Both the position numbers and the translations under genes were made by a program. DNA of 5,626 nucleotides. It comes from a virus (lineage: Duplodnaviria > Heunggongvirae > Uroviricota > Caudoviricetes). Shown piece by piece: positions 1 to 5,626 of the stretch. The stretch covers positions 1 through 5,626 of IMG/VR virus record IMGVR_UViG_2645727555_000026, one strand, 5' to 3'. How positions within the stretch are numbered: the stretch's first letter is position 1; each line of letters starts with the position of its first letter. The notes below the pieces were generated by a model. It was not told where the DNA came from, ran no database searches, and saw nothing but the letters and a program-made list of their open reading frames with translations.

Positions 1-310
1 CTGGCTGACCACGTACAATATTGATTTCATCAAACTGCTCGTCATCAATGAGCACTCCCGCATGCGTCAGCGCATCCAGCGGTGCTTTCAGAATATTGTC
101 CAGGTCACGACGACGCTTATCCGGTGGCTCTGCAATAATTTTTATTGCCAGCCGTCCGGACAGGCTTAATTTCAGTCGCTGCTGGCGAACAATAAGCGCC
201 ACTGCCCGGCGATAACGCTCCCCGGCTTTTGATACAAAATATGTGCTGCCACGGCGTCGCCAGTAAGTGTTCACCGTCGGCGGGTAAGGTAAAACCAAAT
301 CTATGAGCAT
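1..310 (-). CDS. rusA: Crossover junction endodeoxyribonuclease RusA-like Holliday junction resolvase; partial, C-terminus beyond the left window edge
   Basis: Hand translation of the minus strand from ATG at 310..308 gives MLIDLVLPYPPTVNTYWRRRGSTYFVSKAGERYRRAVALIVRQQRLKLSLSGRLAIKIIAEPPDKRRRDLDNILKAPLDALTHAGVLIDDEQFDEINIVRGQP, open to position 1. It shows the RusA hallmarks as I recall them (PP.N.Y near the N-terminus, the acidic DKRRRDLDN block, DALT.AGV..DD). It is not in the ORF track because it has no in-window stop. It begins 12 nt downstream of the DUF968 stop. Confidence 0.85.
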   Translation of the reverse strand, partial: MLIDLVLPYPPTVNTYWRRRGSTYFVSKAGERYRRAVALIVRQQRLKLSLSGRLAIKIIAEPPDKRRRDLDNILKAPLDALTHAGVLIDDEQFDEINIVRGQP

Positions 311-322
311 CAGTCACCTCTT

Positions 323-1372
323 TTACCCGAGCACGCCGGTTGCAAAGGCGTGATCAAGAAAACGAAAAATTAACTCAATCTGAGAGCCGTACTTTTTCTC
401 AAACTCCAGCGGGTCTGCATGAAGTTCGTTGTGGTGCTCCCGGCACAACGGTAACGTGAAAATATCGTGGGCCTTTGTCCCCATTCCCCCCTGACCATGA
501 CCAATCAGGTGATGCGGATCGTCAGCAGGCTTACCACAACACGCACACGGCTGTGTCTTTACCCAGCGCGTGTATTTCTCGTTAACCCAGCGGCGACGTT
601 TAGGTCGTTTCATGAAAGATTCCGGAGACTCAGGATCAACGGCAATGCTGACCACCGTCTTTTCCTGTGGTGGGTTCTGTTGCTGGTGGGCGTGAGGCAG
701 CGGCGCAAGATTTTTTGTGCGCTGCTTCAGTATGCTGGTGGCGGTCTGCTCTCCCGGTACGATGTCGCTTTCACGGTACACTGAGCGGATTTTTTCCGCA
801 CGCAACCCCAGCGAACGACGTAATACCGCTTCCGGTAGCGCGTCCGCCACCTGATTGCGGACCGCCCACCAGGATAATTCAGCCAGAGATAATTCACGCT
901 CCTGCGTACCGCATATTGCGTGACCGATGACGTCAATCATCCATGCTGACAGGTTTTGATGAGCAAGTTGCTCGAGTGATTCGGATGTCTGGTCACGCAG
1001 CTGGTTGTCGCAGTGCCAGCACAACACCATTGCGCCGGTACCATAACGGTGAATAACGGTTTCACTGTGATGATAATCGCCGTGTGGCCACTGGCAGGAT
1101 TTAACATGGCGCAGTAACCAGTCAGACAATGCGCCAGCGCCACCAGCAGCACGAATCACCCGTGCGTTACTGAAAAACGGCAGCAATGTTTTGTCTTCCA
1201 CTAGCGGCTGGCGAACGGCAGGGACGATGCCGGACGGCAGATTACGCATGCTTTTCGGTTCCGGCTCCACCAGTACCCGGGTATTGTGGAATACCGGCAT
1301 GGATTCACGGCCCGGCTTAACGATCACCAGCCCGAGTTCCGGTACCAGAACAGGTCGAAGTAATACCCGCAC
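323..1372 (-). CDS. Phage nin-region protein, DUF968-like (YdfU-like), with a C-terminal HNH-like Cys/His metal-binding motif
   Basis: 349-aa ORF from the track, GTG start at 1372 preceded by a GGAGGT Shine-Dalgarno. The C-terminal segment CACCGKPADDPHHLIGHG...LPLCREHHNELH is a Cys/His cluster of the HNH-endonuclease-like type. The start overlaps the stop of the upstream ORF (TAA-C-GTG) and the gene is immediately followed by rusA. Family assignment is from memory, not a search. Confidence 0.75.
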   Translation of the reverse strand: MRVLLRPVLVPELGLVIVKPGRESMPVFHNTRVLVEPEPKSMRNLPSGIVPAVRQPLVEDKTLLPFFSNARVIRAAGGAGALSDWLLRHVKSCQWPHGDYHHSETVIHRYGTGAMVLCWHCDNQLRDQTSESLEQLAHQNLSAWMIDVIGHAICGTQERELSLAELSWWAVRNQVADALPEAVLRRSLGLRAEKIRSVYRESDIVPGEQTATSILKQRTKNLAPLPHAHQQQNPPQEKTVVSIAVDPESPESFMKRPKRRRWVNEKYTRWVKTQPCACCGKPADDPHHLIGHGQGGMGTKAHDIFTLPLCREHHNELHADPLEFEKKYGSQIELIFRFLDHAFATGVLG

Positions 1373-1373
1373 G

Positions 1374-1646
1374 TTACCTCCAGATGCGTTGCTGGAATGT
1401 GCGGGACGGACGCGGCGGGCGTTCGGAATAAAGGAGCCTGACGTAGATTATCCAGTGACGGTAGTCGAGGCTAAGGGCTTTCTTAAACTCATACCCACGT
1501 CTGCGGTAGTTATGAATCAGCCATTCGGCCTGTTCTTCAGTGCAGGGATCGTGCTGATACCAGTCATATTTGAATGTGTGAGAACACCGCCCTTGCCTGC
1601 TGGCAGGGGCGATATCAGAATTGTGATGTTTGGTATTGTGCGCCAT
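1374..1646 (-). CDS. Hypothetical small phage protein, about 90 aa; an alternative TTG start at 1700 would give 108 aa
   Basis: ORF from the track (1374..1700) with an internal ATG at 1646 (MAHNTKHHNSD...). Its TAA stop at 1376..1374 abuts the DUF968 GTG start, suggesting translational coupling. No recognisable family motif and no strong SD for either start, so start and function are uncertain. Confidence 0.5.
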   Translation of the reverse strand: MAHNTKHHNSDIAPASRQGRCSHTFKYDWYQHDPCTEEQAEWLIHNYRRRGYEFKKALSLDYRHWIIYVRLLYSERPPRPSRTFQQRIWR

Positions 1647-1716
1647 CGGTTTTCTCTGCTGGCGCAGCAGGTGCCAGTTGTTCAAGCTGGCGTGCGGCAA
1701 TATTGTCTCTGATTTC

Positions 1717-1746
1717 TGTTGTCGTCAACAGGCAACGTGCTATCAT
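1717..1746 (+). promoter_or_regulatory. Putative sigma70 promoter of parDE overlapping a short palindrome (possible ParD operator), inside a divergent promoter region
   Basis: TTGTCG (1719-1724), 16-nt spacer, TATCAT (1741-1746), about 35 nt upstream of the parD ATG. TGTTG (1717-1721) and CAACA (1726-1730) form an inverted repeat around the -35. On the opposite strand TTGACG (complement of 1721-1726) could serve as a -35 for the leftward operon. Pattern-based only. Confidence 0.35.
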
Positions 1747-1781
1747 CGAATGGTGTTCTATCCTACTCCGTGAGGTTTACC

Positions 1782-2039
1782 ATGCGTACAACCCAACAAT
1801 TCAGCATTACATTAACTAACGAAATGGCTGACATGGTGCGCGCCCGTGTGGCTTCCGGTGCCTATGCTTCAGAAAGCGAGGTCATTCGTGAAGGGCTTCG
1901 CGCACTGAATGAGCGCGATAAAGCAATCGAAGCGTGGTTAACGCATTCAGCCGCCCCCTCTCTTGATTCTATCCGCGAAAACCCAAACAACGGACGCTCC
2001 ATTTCACAGGTTCGCGCCGCGATTCGATCCGGGAAGTAA
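1782..2039 (+). CDS. parD: Type II antitoxin, ParD-like (ribbon-helix-helix, COG3609 type)
   Basis: 85 aa from ATG 1782 with GAGG SD 6 nt upstream (the track's upstream TTG start at 1719 is less likely). Sequence MRTTQQFSITLTNEMADMVRARVASGAYASESEVIREGLRALNERDKAIEAWL matches the ParD-type motif (..SASEVIR..LR.L.ER..). The stop lies 5 nt before the toxin start, the usual antitoxin-first TA layout. Confidence 0.85.
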   Translation: MRTTQQFSITLTNEMADMVRARVASGAYASESEVIREGLRALNERDKAIEAWLTHSAAPSLDSIRENPNNGRSISQVRAAIRSGK

Positions 2040-2044
2040 TCTGC

Positions 2045-2344
2045 ATGACATATGAAGTCATCATTACTCCTGAGGCCGAAGAACAAATAATCAACCTGCA
2101 CAGATATATAACGGAGAAAGCAGGGAACGTCATTGCTGACAATTTTGCCAATGCGCTTCTTGATTATCTTGATGGGTTTTCTACATTCCCGCATCGGGGC
2201 AATAAACGCGATGATATTCGCCAGGGGATGCGGGTAACTCATTTCCGCCACAGAACGATTATTGCTTTTGCCGTTGATGGCAGAAAAGTCTTTATTGTCG
2301 GTATCTATCATGGTGGGCAAAGTTATGAAACCGATTTCTTATAA
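2045..2344 (+). CDS. parE: Type II toxin, ParE/RelE superfamily (ParE-like)
   Basis: 99 aa, MTYEVIITPEAEEQIINLHRYI...FPHRGNKRDDIRQGMRVTHFRHRTIIAFAVDGRKVFIVGIYHGGQSY. Size and conserved pattern (Y.V.IT..AE.D, P..G..R.D.R.G.R, HR..I.F.V.G..V.I..I.HG.Q) are typical of ParE toxins. Immediately follows the ParD-like gene. Confidence 0.88.
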   Translation: MTYEVIITPEAEEQIINLHRYITEKAGNVIADNFANALLDYLDGFSTFPHRGNKRDDIRQGMRVTHFRHRTIIAFAVDGRKVFIVGIYHGGQSYETDFL

Positions 2345-2425
2345 ACTTTTACCCACATCATTCCGGTGTTAGAATTAACCGTCCGCCCCCCTCTCTTACT
2401 GGCGGATTCGTAGGCTATATAAATC

Positions 2426-2462
2426 AAAGATCCCGGCTCATGTTTGTGTCGGGATCTTTTTT
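2426..2462. terminator. Rho-independent terminator hairpin, probably bidirectional, shared by the convergent parDE unit and the minus-strand three-gene operon
   Basis: Perfect 10-bp inverted repeat AAAGATCCCG (2426-2435) / CGGGATCTTT (2450-2459) around a 14-nt loop, followed by a T-run on the plus strand (TTTTTT, 2457-2462) and preceded by an A/T-rich tract that gives a U-rich tail on the minus strand. It sits 80 bp after the parE stop and about 10 bp after the small-peptide stop. Confidence 0.7.
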
Positions 2463-2469
2463 CGGCGAT

Positions 2470-2553
2470 TTATCCCCAGCGGCAAATCGAATACACCACC
2501 AGCGCCACCGCCATCGCAATTCCTACCGTTGTGAATGCTTCAGGCCTGGTCAT
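2470..2553 (-). CDS. Unannotated 27-aa hydrophobic (single-pass membrane-type) peptide, third gene of the coupled operon
   Basis: Hand translation of the minus strand from ATG 2553..2551: [30 protein letters not shown] at 2472..2470. The ATG overlaps the TGA stop of the upstream 114-aa ORF (ATGA), with GGAGG (complement of 2563-2567) 9 nt upstream. A hydrophobic core is followed by a basic/aromatic RW end, and the terminator hairpin follows directly. Below the ORF-track size cutoff. Confidence 0.5.
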
Positions 2554-2894
2554 CGTAAAACATCCTCCACGCTTGTCAGTCCGTTTCGCTCCAGGTAGTC
2601 CATCGCCTTATCCGGCAGTTTGCAGTCCGGCTTCGCTTTCCTCAGTTGCCAGGCTAACTGCTTTACCTGCATAGTTAACTCGTCGACCAGACGCTGATAC
2701 CCCACTGGTTTGTATTCATGCAATTTACCGGCTGGCTCTGCTGCCAGCGATGCCAGTGCGATTTCCAGAACAGCAATATCCATCTTATATGTGCGGATGA
2801 TGTCATGGTCGATTGTGCCCGGTATACACAGTCTCTGTGCTTCAATAGTCTCCTCTGCGTGAGCTATTAACTGCTCTCTGGTAATAGTGGTCAT
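2550..2894 (-). CDS. Hypothetical 114-aa protein (predicted mostly alpha-helical), middle gene of the coupled operon
   Basis: ORF from the track. ATG at 2894..2892 overlaps the TGA stop of the upstream 171-aa gene (ATGA) and an AAGGA SD lies about 9 nt upstream. No family motif recognised. Confidence 0.7.
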
Positions 2895-3406
2895 GCCGCG
2901 TTTCCTTCTTTCTTATTAACAATTACACCGTCATATATTTCATTAAGGTGCCCTCTCAACTCCATGCGCCTTAATGCAGACAACATGTAATCGCATTCAA
3001 CCTGCTTATTTCCAGTAAATGGCTTATCGTCAGGATTACCCCAACAGCAATTACCCTTGGGCCACCCATGTACTTTCCGTACTCTTCCGTTAACAACGTG
3101 AAGTAATCCCCAGCCAGGTGGTAAATCCTCAATTGAAATAATTCCCGGCTCACTAATAAAGAATCGCCAGTCGCCCATTCCAAGAGACGGATTTTTACGA
3201 AAACGCTTTTTTCTATCTGCCAACAAGTCAGCACGAGAACATTTCGCCTCTATCAGGCATGATGCTGAATTTCTGAATCCCATAGCATCTGGCTGTTCTC
3301 CGGTACTGGTTACAGCTATAAAGCGGTCATGAAAACAAACCTTGAACCCGTTGCGCTTAAGGAACTTGTACGCAATCTGACAGAGTTCGCGGTGTGTTAA
3401 CGCCAT
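2891..3406 (-). CDS. Putative PD-(D/E)XK-fold nuclease-like protein (171 aa), first gene of the coupled operon
   Basis: The track ORF 2891..3436 starts at a TTG; ATG at 3406 with a strong AGGAG SD (CAAAGGAGAGTGAT-ATG) is the more likely start. Sequence: helix with Glu ([17 protein letters not shown]), beta-strand [12 protein letters not shown] (D40, codon 3289..3287), then 13 residues on, CLIEAKCS (E53-x-K55, codons 3250..3242), i.e. a PD...(D/E)XK arrangement. The C-terminal half has no recognised motif. Fold assignment is a motif-level inference. Confidence 0.7.
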
Positions 3407-3551
3407 ATCACTCTCCTTTGATGCGAATGCCAGCAAGCCAGTTTCTTATGCCGATATATTCAGCGTTCCTGAAACCGCTTTTTACATACGCTGGGCTAAA
3501 AATGAAGTTATCGCCAGAGATCGCGAAGACTGGAAGCGCATCTCCGCATCA

Positions 3552-5144
3552 ATGCGCAAACAACCTGATGCGCTTCGCTACAGCCGCCAGACTATTTTTG
3601 GCCTTGTCCGTGAACGCCCGATCGACATTCACAAAGATCCCGTGGCACTGAACAAATACATCACTGAATACCTGACTACAAAGGGCGTGTTTGAAGATGA
3701 CGAAGGAACAAATCAGGGCACAGCTAATACTCTCTCGTCGCCAGTACCAGAAACTGACGCAGTGGAAACGGCAATTCAGGACAACGAAAAAACCGAATGC
3801 AAAGTGGAAGTCGAATCATCTGTAGAGCGTGAGGGGCCGTTCTACTTCCTCTTCAGCGACAAGGATGGCGAAAAATACGGTCGTGCAAACAAACTTTCTG
3901 GTCTGAATAAGGCGCTGGCTGCAGGGGCTACTGAAATCACGAAAGAAGAATATTTTGCCCGCAAAAACGGTACATACTCAGGTTCACAACAAAATACTGG
4001 TGCATCTGACACGATCGCACAACCGGAGCCGGTAAAAGTTACCGCTGACGAAGTAAACAAAATTATGCAGGCAGCCAATATCAGCCAGCCTGACGCCGAT
4101 AAGTTGCTTGCTGTATCACGTGGTGAATTTGTTGCAGGGATTAGCGACCCGAATGATCCGAAATGGGTGAAGGAGATTGAAACCCGCGATTCAGTGAATC
4201 AGAACCAGCAAGAAACGGAACAGAACGACCAGAAAGCGGAACAAAACAGCCCAAATGCGTTACAAAACGAGCCAGAAACGAAACAATCCGAACCAGTAGT
4301 GCAACAGGAACCGGAAAAAGTCTGCACCGCCTGCGGTCAGAGCGGTGGCGGCAACTGCCCCGATTGTGGCGCTGTCATGGGCAACGCAACATACCAGGAA
4401 ACATTCGATGAAGAGAATCAGGTTGAAGCTCAGGAGAATGATCCGGAGGAAATGGAAGGCGCTGAACATCCACACAAGGAGAACACTGGCGGCAATCAGC
4501 ATCACGCCAGCGATAGTGAAACTGGCGAGGCGGCAGATCCCTTAATTAAGGTGAATGGTCATCACAATCTCACATCCACCAGCAGAGCGGGGATTCATCT
4601 GATGATCGACATTGAAACCATGGGAAAAAATCCCAATGCCGCGATTATCTCAATAGGCGCAATATTTTTCGATCCACAAACCGGAGATATGGGACCGGAA
4701 TTTAGCAAGACCATCGATCTGGATACTGCTGGCGGAGTTATTGATCGTGACGTCATTAAATGGTGGCTGAAGCAATCACGTGAAGCGCAGTCTGCCATTC
4801 TGACCGATGAAATCCCGTTAGATGATGCACTACTGCAATTGCGGGAATTTATCGCCGAAAACTCCGGTGAATTTTTTGTTCAGGTCTGGGGAAATGGAGC
4901 CAACTTCGACAACGTGATTTTACGCCGTTCATACGAACGGCAGGGGATCCCCTGCCCCTGGCACTACCACAACGATCGCGATGTACGCACAATCGTTGAG
5001 CTAGGGAAAGCCATAGACTTCGATGCCAGAACAGCTATCCCATTCGAAGGTGAGCGCCACAATGCACTTGATGACGCCCGTTACCAGGCAAAATACGTTT
5101 CAGCTATCTGGCAAAAACTGATCCCGAGTCAGGCTGATTTTTAA
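3552..5144 (+). CDS. Multidomain phage protein (530 aa): N-terminal region of unknown function, acidic Gln/Glu-rich low-complexity linker, C-x2-C-x8-C-x2-C zinc ribbon, C-terminal DEDDh (DnaQ-like) 3'-5' exonuclease domain
   Basis: Long ORF from the track; 3552 is the first in-frame ATG after an upstream stop, with no obvious SD. Zinc ribbon CTACGQSGGGNCPDCG at about 4321-4370. Exonuclease motifs: Exo I MIDIETMG (about 4602-4625), Exo II VWGNGANFDNVIL, Exo III HNALDDARYQA near the C-terminus. Low-complexity segment NQNQQETEQNDQKAEQNSPNALQNEPETKQSEPVVQQEPEK at about 4195-4320. Confidence 0.85.
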   Translation: MRKQPDALRYSRQTIFGLVRERPIDIHKDPVALNKYITEYLTTKGVFEDDEGTNQGTANTLSSPVPETDAVETAIQDNEKTECKVEVESSVEREGPFYFLFSDKDGEKYGRANKLSGLNKALAAGATEITKEEYFARKNGTYSGSQQNTGASDTIAQPEPVKVTADEVNKIMQAANISQPDADKLLAVSRGEFVAGISDPNDPKWVKEIETRDSVNQNQQETEQNDQKAEQNSPNALQNEPETKQSEPVVQQEPEKVCTACGQSGGGNCPDCGAVMGNATYQETFDEENQVEAQENDPEEMEGAEHPHKENTGGNQHHASDSETGEAADPLIKVNGHHNLTSTSRAGIHLMIDIETMGKNPNAAIISIGAIFFDPQTGDMGPEFSKTIDLDTAGGVIDRDVIKWWLKQSREAQSAILTDEIPLDDALLQLREFIAENSGEFFVQVWGNGANFDNVILRRSYERQGIPCPWHYHNDRDVRTIVELGKAIDFDARTAIPFEGERHNALDDARYQAKYVSAIWQKLIPSQADF

Positions 5145-5213
5145 TGTTCAACCATCGCCGGTTGTGACTGGTATTCTGCAACCGGCCCTCATCTGATGTA
5201 AGAGATAAAAGCG

Positions 5214-5465
5214 ATGAGCGAAGTAATCATGATTGTCTCTCCCGGTAAATGGGTATCTGAAGAACAGCTAATTGCACTGAAAGGAATAAAAAAGGGAACG
5301 CTAAAAAAAGCCAGAGAAAAATCGTTTATGGAAGGAAGGGAATATAAGCATGTCGCCCATGACTGTATGCCATGGGATAACAGCCCATGCTTTTACAACC
5401 TGGAAGAAATAGATCGCTGGATTGAACGCCAGGCATCAGCAAGACCAAGGCGTCATCTTACTTGA
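5214..5465 (+). CDS. xis: Excisionase-like (Xis-type) small DNA-binding protein
   Basis: 83-aa ORF immediately upstream of, and co-oriented with, the integrase gene. Contains a GREY motif (MEGREYKHV) reminiscent of the lambda Xis DGREYLF segment. Assignment rests mainly on size and position; an alternative start at ATG 5229 is possible. Confidence 0.6.
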   Translation: MSEVIMIVSPGKWVSEEQLIALKGIKKGTLKKAREKSFMEGREYKHVAHDCMPWDNSPCFYNLEEIDRWIERQASARPRRHLT

Positions 5466-5499
5466 GTAAAAACAATACTAACCAATGAGAGAAGCTGAA

Positions 5500-5626
5500 A
5501 TGAAATATCCGACAGGCGTGGAAAACCATGGTGGGAAATTACGTATCTGGTTTGTTTATAAAGGTGTAAGAGTCCGGGAAAATCTTGGGGTTCCTGACAC
5601 AGCAAAAAACAGGCGCATTGCAGGTG
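5500..5626 (+). CDS. int: Tyrosine integrase (lambda Int family), N-terminal arm-binding region only; continues past the right window edge
   Basis: ATG at 5500 with a GAGAGAAG SD-like stretch upstream. Hand translation MKYPTGVENHGGKLRIWFVYKGVRVRENLGVPDTAKNRRIAG resembles the N-terminus of enterobacterial prophage integrases (PTGVE..G..RIWF.YKG.R.RE.L). Open to the window end. Confidence 0.75.
   Translation, partial: MKYPTGVENHGGKLRIWFVYKGVRVRENLGVPDTAKNRRIAG

Follow-up and report, generated by a model that had tools for sequence, protein, structure and literature searches.

Gene content of the window

The window, that is, the whole stretch of DNA that was analyzed (5,626 bp), is the entire contig DF970465.1 of the draft assembly GCA_001297725.1. 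Positions 1-3488 correspond to the nin-like region of lambdoid prophages, with up to 99.7% identity to sequences in a set of 5,426 complete E. coli genomes. This part encodes RusA, a DUF968/ydfU protein, a small hypothetical protein, the ParD/ParE pair, and two further hypothetical proteins, and it closes with the end of an ead/Ea22-like gene. Positions 3489-5626 contain an exonuclease reading frame followed by xis and int, with identities of up to 100% in the same genomes. At either end, the window stops within prophage sequence that is present in multiple copies (RusA on the left, the integrase on the right). The coordinates of all features are given in Table 1.

Table 1. Features of the window, with position, strand, and basis or remarks.
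Feature	Position	Strand	Basis or remarks
DUF968 (ydfU-like) protein	323..1372	-	
ParD/ParE toxin-antitoxin pair	1782..2344	+	
Hairpin after ParD/ParE	2426..2465		A-tract before, U-run after
171-aa ORF	2891..3406	-	intact
ead/Ea22-like gene, 3' end, ~27 codons	3408..3488	-	5'-truncated by the joint 3488/3489
Rearrangement joint between 3488 and 3489	3485..3492	none	blunt join, ...ACATA/CGCTGGG..., no shared sequence
21 more exonuclease codons, residues 274-294 (RWAKNEVIARDREDWKRISAS)	3489..3551	+	in frame, without a start codon
530-aa ORF	3552..5144	+	residues 295-824 of the 824-aa prophage exonuclease; its start is an internal Met of the intact gene
Last two helices of predicted five-helix domain	3552..3701	+	AlphaFold2; domain cut by the joint and Met295
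Predicted small alpha/beta domain, ORF aa 91-141 (full-length 385-435)	3822..3974	+	AlphaFold2, pLDDT 86-95
RecE-homologous module, ORF aa 181-331: GISDPNDPKW motif, Q/E/N linker, zinc ribbon, acidic tail	4092..4544	+	NF007259 positions 440-603
Imperfect 21-nt (7-aa) tandem repeat coding for the Q/E/N linker	4196..4286	+	4.3 copies, 68% matches
Zinc ribbon C-x2-C-x7-C-x2-C (C258, C261, C269, C272)	4323..4367	+	motif reading
Rv2179c-like DEDDh 3'-5' exonuclease domain, aa 349-520	4596..5111	+	PF16473, E 6.9e-67
Excisionase, DUF1233, xisR-like	5214..5465	+	domain match and annotation of locus L001
Site-specific integrase, 5' end, arm DNA-binding domain	5500..5626	+	cut by the contig end

The ORF listing confirmed the extent that the preliminary description had assigned to the 530-aa ORF, and its placement just upstream of xis-int held as well, with the DUF1233 excisionase and the integrase following in this order. 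The multi-domain layout proposed for the protein was also recovered. The frame upstream of the ATG at 3552 is open for 57 codons, to a TGA at 3378. In agreement with what had been reported, these codons contain no ATG, GTG, or TTG, and no Shine-Dalgarno sequence. No sigma-70-like site was found on the + strand near the start of the ORF.

Relationship to the 824-aa prophage exonuclease

Over its whole length, the ORF matches residues 295-824 of the exonuclease WP_001473550.1 from E. coli 14EC001 with 100% identity; this exonuclease is an 824-aa protein encoded by a gene of 2,475 nt (L001:5182-7656). The identity extends to the DNA, and the copy in the window carries no inactivating mutation. 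Against the PHROG 2082 profile, the ORF matched positions 295-823 of 823. Judged by sequence, the ORF is the 3' 64% of this prophage gene, which is already known and very common. In phage mEp460, the protein is annotated as "exodeoxyribonuclease encoded by cryptic prophage CP-933P"; other names are ECO26_1771-like and "3'-5' exoribonuclease domain-containing protein". Its gene occupies the same place as the ORF, immediately upstream of xis-int. The copy in the window lacks residues 1-294 of the 824-aa exonuclease (1-273 when counted on the DNA) together with its native start, and the dicB-ydfD genes that precede the intact gene are absent too. A complete coding sequence of the PHROG 2082 gene is absent from the window, where only residues 274-824 are encoded and the first start codon is that of residue 295. 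The usual gene order, under the early-left promoter, is dicB - ydfD/DUF1482 - exo - xis - int; xis and int are present in the window, whereas the upstream half is replaced by - strand genes of the nin region.

Of the 5,426 complete E. coli genomes, 3,511 (about two-thirds) contain the intact gene, the DEDDh version, at a coverage of at least 80%, and a single genome can have it in as many as 10 places. Phages mEp460 and HannyBb, which are viable, carry a nearly full-length version of 823 aa between dicB/DUF1482-type genes and xis-int. A sensitive search of 1.84 billion representative proteins with residues 1-340 of the ORF returned only 117 relatives. In all the long relatives among these 117 representatives, the matched segment is internal and starts at about residue 280-450. 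We considered whether Met295 is a natural internal start, and rejected this possibility: there is no Shine-Dalgarno sequence, conservation is unbroken across Met295, and the segment is internal in the long homologues.

The joint at 3488/3489 and the interval missing from the window

Matches to exonuclease genes begin at 3485-3489 in all genome and phage hits, and matches to the left part of the window end at 3488. In a three-way alignment, with a slash marking the joint, the sequence is ...TTTTTACATA/TATAAATGG in the left parent, ...GCATCCTT/CGCTGGGCT in the right parent, and ...ACATA/CGCTGGG in the window. The joint was not present in any other record among the 5,426 complete E. coli genomes, the species-representative genomes (including an exact-match search), phages, and plasmids. 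There are no Ns at the joint. Truncation mediated by an IS element, as in ydfE of K-12, was rejected because no IS sequence is found at the joint.

The two genes that abut the joint, the exonuclease and the Ea22-like gene, are each 5'-truncated. Position 3488 of the window corresponds to position 9485 of the related locus L002, which lies within an Ea22-like CDS (9405-10352, - strand), and plasmid matches to window positions 3430-3488 carry an ead/Ea22-like annotation.

Strain 12E115 (O145:H28) contains both halves of the window in one prophage and in the same orientation, with 9,460 bp between them. Missing from the window with this interval are 820 nt (273 codons) at the 5' end of the exonuclease gene, as well as dicB, ydfC, and DUF1482/ydfD. 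Also absent are the replication genes together with ydaT, a cI-like and a cro-like regulator in divergent orientation, the larger part of the Ea22-like gene, and several small genes. Relative to 12E115, the immunity/replication region with both early promoters is absent from the window.

The nearest upstream operon on the + strand is parDE, and a strong hairpin with a U-run behind it closes this operon. Between this terminator and the joint are 0.9 kb that code for - strand genes. ParD/ParE is located within an otherwise - strand nin-like region, and the hairpin, with its A-tract and U-run, looks like a bidirectional terminator. The region from 2370 to 2470 has a minimum free energy of -31.8 kcal/mol (z -2.5).

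RecE-type region, linker, and zinc ribbon

The preliminary description regarded the N-terminal 340 or so residues of the ORF as uncharacterized. Their homologues are RecE-type proteins, in which they correspond to the N-terminal/central region; this region is recognized in the literature, although without a known function (PMC11611040). Residues 181-331 of the ORF are 74% identical over 151 aa to residues 471-614 of RecE from Rac-SA53. Around the truncation point (about residues 279-336), the alignment with RecE is weaker, at 29%. The NCBIfam RecE model (NF007259) and PHROG 607 also gave partial matches to the ORF. The equivalog cutoff of NF007259 (1269 bits) was reached neither by the ORF (269.7 bits) nor by the full-length protein (293.1 bits), and the PF06630 nuclease had no match in either of them.

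A search of ORF residues 1-340 against Pfam-A, in a version without PF27430 and PF27432, gave no match. In precomputed Pfam assignments, these two families cover the N-terminal domains, and the homologues that have them are all at least 759 aa (PF27430) or 649 aa (PF27432) long. Because the two families are restricted to long homologues, hits to them need sequence upstream of residue 295, which the ORF does not have.

The likeness to RecE (exonuclease VIII of the Rac prophage) consists of the common N-terminal/central scaffold and the same early-left operon neighborhood. The nucleases differ: RecE has a PD-(D/E)XK 5'-3' exonuclease (PF06630), whereas the 824-aa family has a DEDDh 3'-5' domain in this place and is not followed by recT. 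No RecT-type annealase gene was found as a neighbor, and xis follows directly in the window and in loci L001, L003, L005, and L006. The DEDDh version is therefore not a two-component recombinase of the RecET type. Among 38 long RecE-like representatives, the C-terminal nuclease was PF06630 in 19, a DUF3799 PD-(D/E)XK domain in 13, and Rv2179c-like in 8. Since three types of nuclease are found on one N-terminal region in these 38 representatives, the scaffold is shared and the nuclease module is swapped. One of the 38 representatives also carries a RecT domain.

The low-complexity segment rich in Gln, Glu, and Asn was confirmed at residues 215-255 of the ORF (Q 24%, E 20%, N 15%), where it is encoded by the imperfect tandem repeat listed in Table 1. 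Variation in repeat number among homologues, which had been suggested as something to look for, exists: from DPKW to the first Cys, the linker has one of five lengths (32, 38, 46, 52, or 54 residues). The zinc ribbon that follows is present as described, but the spacing between its two cysteine pairs is seven residues and not eight. It is conserved in RecE and found in about 30% of the 38 RecE-like representatives.

Predicted structure and DEDDh domain

We modeled the full-length protein with AlphaFold2 from a 38-sequence alignment (mean pLDDT 67.7). A single-sequence prediction (mean pLDDT 34) was set aside in favor of this model. Confident domains were predicted at residues 1-205, 241-344, and 385-435, and the DEDDh domain at 640-824. 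The domain at 241-344 consists of five helices with pLDDT values of 84-94. In the small alpha/beta domain at 385-435, the model places strands at 391-397, 400-406, and 421-423, and helices at 409-417 and 425-432. Segments with low pLDDT (207-237, 345-384, 440-475, and 501-638) are read as probable disordered linkers. Both the joint (codon 274) and Met295 are located inside the five-helix domain; a product started at Met295 would therefore be without three of the five predicted helices. Conservation is unbroken across residues 241-340 in the 38 RecE-like representatives.

The DEDDh motifs named in the preliminary description (DIET, NGANFD, and H-x4-D) are indeed present and belong to a complete PF16473 domain in the last 172 residues. 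The match scored 225 bits against a gathering cutoff of 27 and covered profile positions 2-177 of 177. All five catalytic residues are in place: D353 and E355 (DIET, 353-356), D453 (NGANFD, 448-453), and H503 and D508 (HNALDD, 503-508). The domain has the RNase-H-like DEDDh fold, and the fold matches RNase T, Cap18, T4 DexA, and Rv2179c (4hec). RNase T, T4 DexA (PDB 8KEL), Cap18, and the Rv2179c-like enzymes are stand-alone proteins of about 170-230 aa. In contrast, in the 824-aa family the DEDDh domain ends a long RecE-type scaffold. In PADLOC, the only match to the exonuclease was to a generic Cas-associated DEDDh model (E 7e-5), and no window protein was assigned to a defense system. We found no published biochemistry on the DEDDh version and no literature on Rv2179c-like/PF16473 prophage exonucleases.

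Origin of the ORF

It is highly probable that a common gene of the lambdoid-prophage early-left operon was truncated at its 5' end by a deletion joint and that the 530-aa ORF is what remains of it. A blunt illegitimate join at 3488/3489 in a Qin-type prophage would have removed about 9.5 kb and left an in-frame tail of the gene. The first usable start of this tail is Met295, with no ribosome-binding site or promoter, and the remnant would have arisen recently, through decay of a defective prophage. The same sequence would result if the source genome had an intact 824-aa gene and two prophage segments were misjoined at 3488/3489 as an assembly or library chimera, an explanation that we consider unlikely. 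It draws some support from the window being a whole short draft contig, from the uniqueness of the joint in the genomes, phages, and plasmids searched, and from the multi-copy state of the exonuclease gene, inside which contigs of many assemblies break. However, there is no shared sequence at the join, and graph and overlap assemblers need spanning reads to create a join of this kind; neither are there Ns that would mark a gap. In addition, the two sides are collinear, correctly oriented, and 9.46 kb apart in the same type of prophage, as a simple deletion would produce them but a random chimera would be unlikely to. Whether it arose through deletion or as a chimera, the ORF is not a native gene. 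The preliminary description had presented it as a native and unusual fusion protein, a new kind of protein with an uncharacterized N-terminal domain. The failure of residues 1-340 to match Pfam-A would agree with this reading. Given that the entire ORF is identical to part of a longer annotated protein, that its N-terminal part is homologous to RecE-type proteins, and that the exact 530-aa protein is on record from contig DF970465.1 only, the probability of a native fusion is close to nil. A fusion artefact, through frameshift or assembly error, had been foreseen as the finding that would overturn the description. This was right in spirit, but the ORF was created by truncation and not by fusion.

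The truncation also accounts for the expression signals, which had seemed puzzling: the start, the Shine-Dalgarno sequence, and the promoter are missing because they were taken away with the sequence upstream of 3488/3489. As the signals are lacking and a domain is cut, we infer that the truncated copy is not expressed and that it is most likely silent and non-functional. Nevertheless, neither the DEDDh domain nor the linker modules are damaged, and spurious transcription with initiation at Met295 could give an active nuclease. That the host expresses the truncated ORF from Met295 as a shortened yet active 3'-5' exonuclease is very improbable. The intact reading frame and the complete set of catalytic residues are in keeping with it, and a nuclease without its scaffold is plausible in principle because the RecE nuclease domain is active without the N-terminal region (PMC11611040). 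Against it, a + strand transcript coming from upstream would be antisense to three genes and could reach the ORF only through the terminator, there is neither a Shine-Dalgarno sequence nor a promoter-like site, and the product is predicted to begin inside a folded domain. Moreover, that the fragment is still perfectly identical to intact copies suggests that the event was recent, and not that the fragment has been under selection.

The exonuclease family and its decay

The remnant in the window is not the only damaged copy of this gene. The ydfE pseudogene of the Qin prophage in K-12 (L009:5079-5999) encodes the N-terminal 256 residues with 88% identity and is cut by IS2E. It belongs to the same family and occupies the same chromosomal site (dicB-ydfD-ydfE...intQ-rspB). 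However, ydfE retains a 5' fragment cut by an insertion element, whereas the window retains a 3' fragment cut by a deletion joint. PHROGs contains separate families that consist of fragments of the exonuclease gene. Going by ydfE and these fragment families, decay of the gene is recurrent. The literature on ydfE and Qin gave no information on function.

For annotation, the label of the ORF should be that of a partial copy or pseudogene of the prophage exonuclease and not that of a new protein. A flag on the contig should mark it as derived from a Qin-type prophage by deletion or, possibly, as a chimera. In the wider family, enterobacterial prophages swap nucleases of opposite polarity, PD-(D/E)XK 5'-3' or DEDDh 3'-5', onto one RecE-type scaffold. 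This swapping is a property of the family and not a discovery made in the window. A survey of lambdoid phages reported sporadic DnaQ-type nuclease genes near int in early-left operons, which were not members of Rec modules (Genome Res 2025, PMC12315714). These genes, uncharacterized in the survey, resemble the family discussed here in class and location.

Intact members of the family would probably be expressed from pL upon induction and trim the 3' ends of nucleic acids. A probable role of the unstructured linkers and the scaffold domains shared with RecE is the positioning of the nuclease. For RecE, the full-length protein is known to raise linear-linear recombination (PMC11611040). There is a slim chance that the role of the intact family is distinct from RecET-type recombination, for example 3'-end trimming that modulates host recombination or counters defense, and that the fragment has perhaps kept residual nuclease activity.

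Other genes in the window

The 171-aa ORF had no sequence match in Pfam, NCBIfam, PADLOC, or the PDB. It is intact in the window; in the closest relatives (L002 and L003), the annotation of its counterpart is that of a hypothetical protein with a frameshift. Its PHROG matches (9263 and 631) are to families of unknown function. A PD...EAK-like motif (GEQPDAMGF...CLIEAKCS) suggests that it may encode a PD-(D/E)XK nuclease. The C-terminal part of the DUF968 protein had a weak, sub-threshold match to an HNH-nuclease-like family (PF16784, E 5.5e-5).
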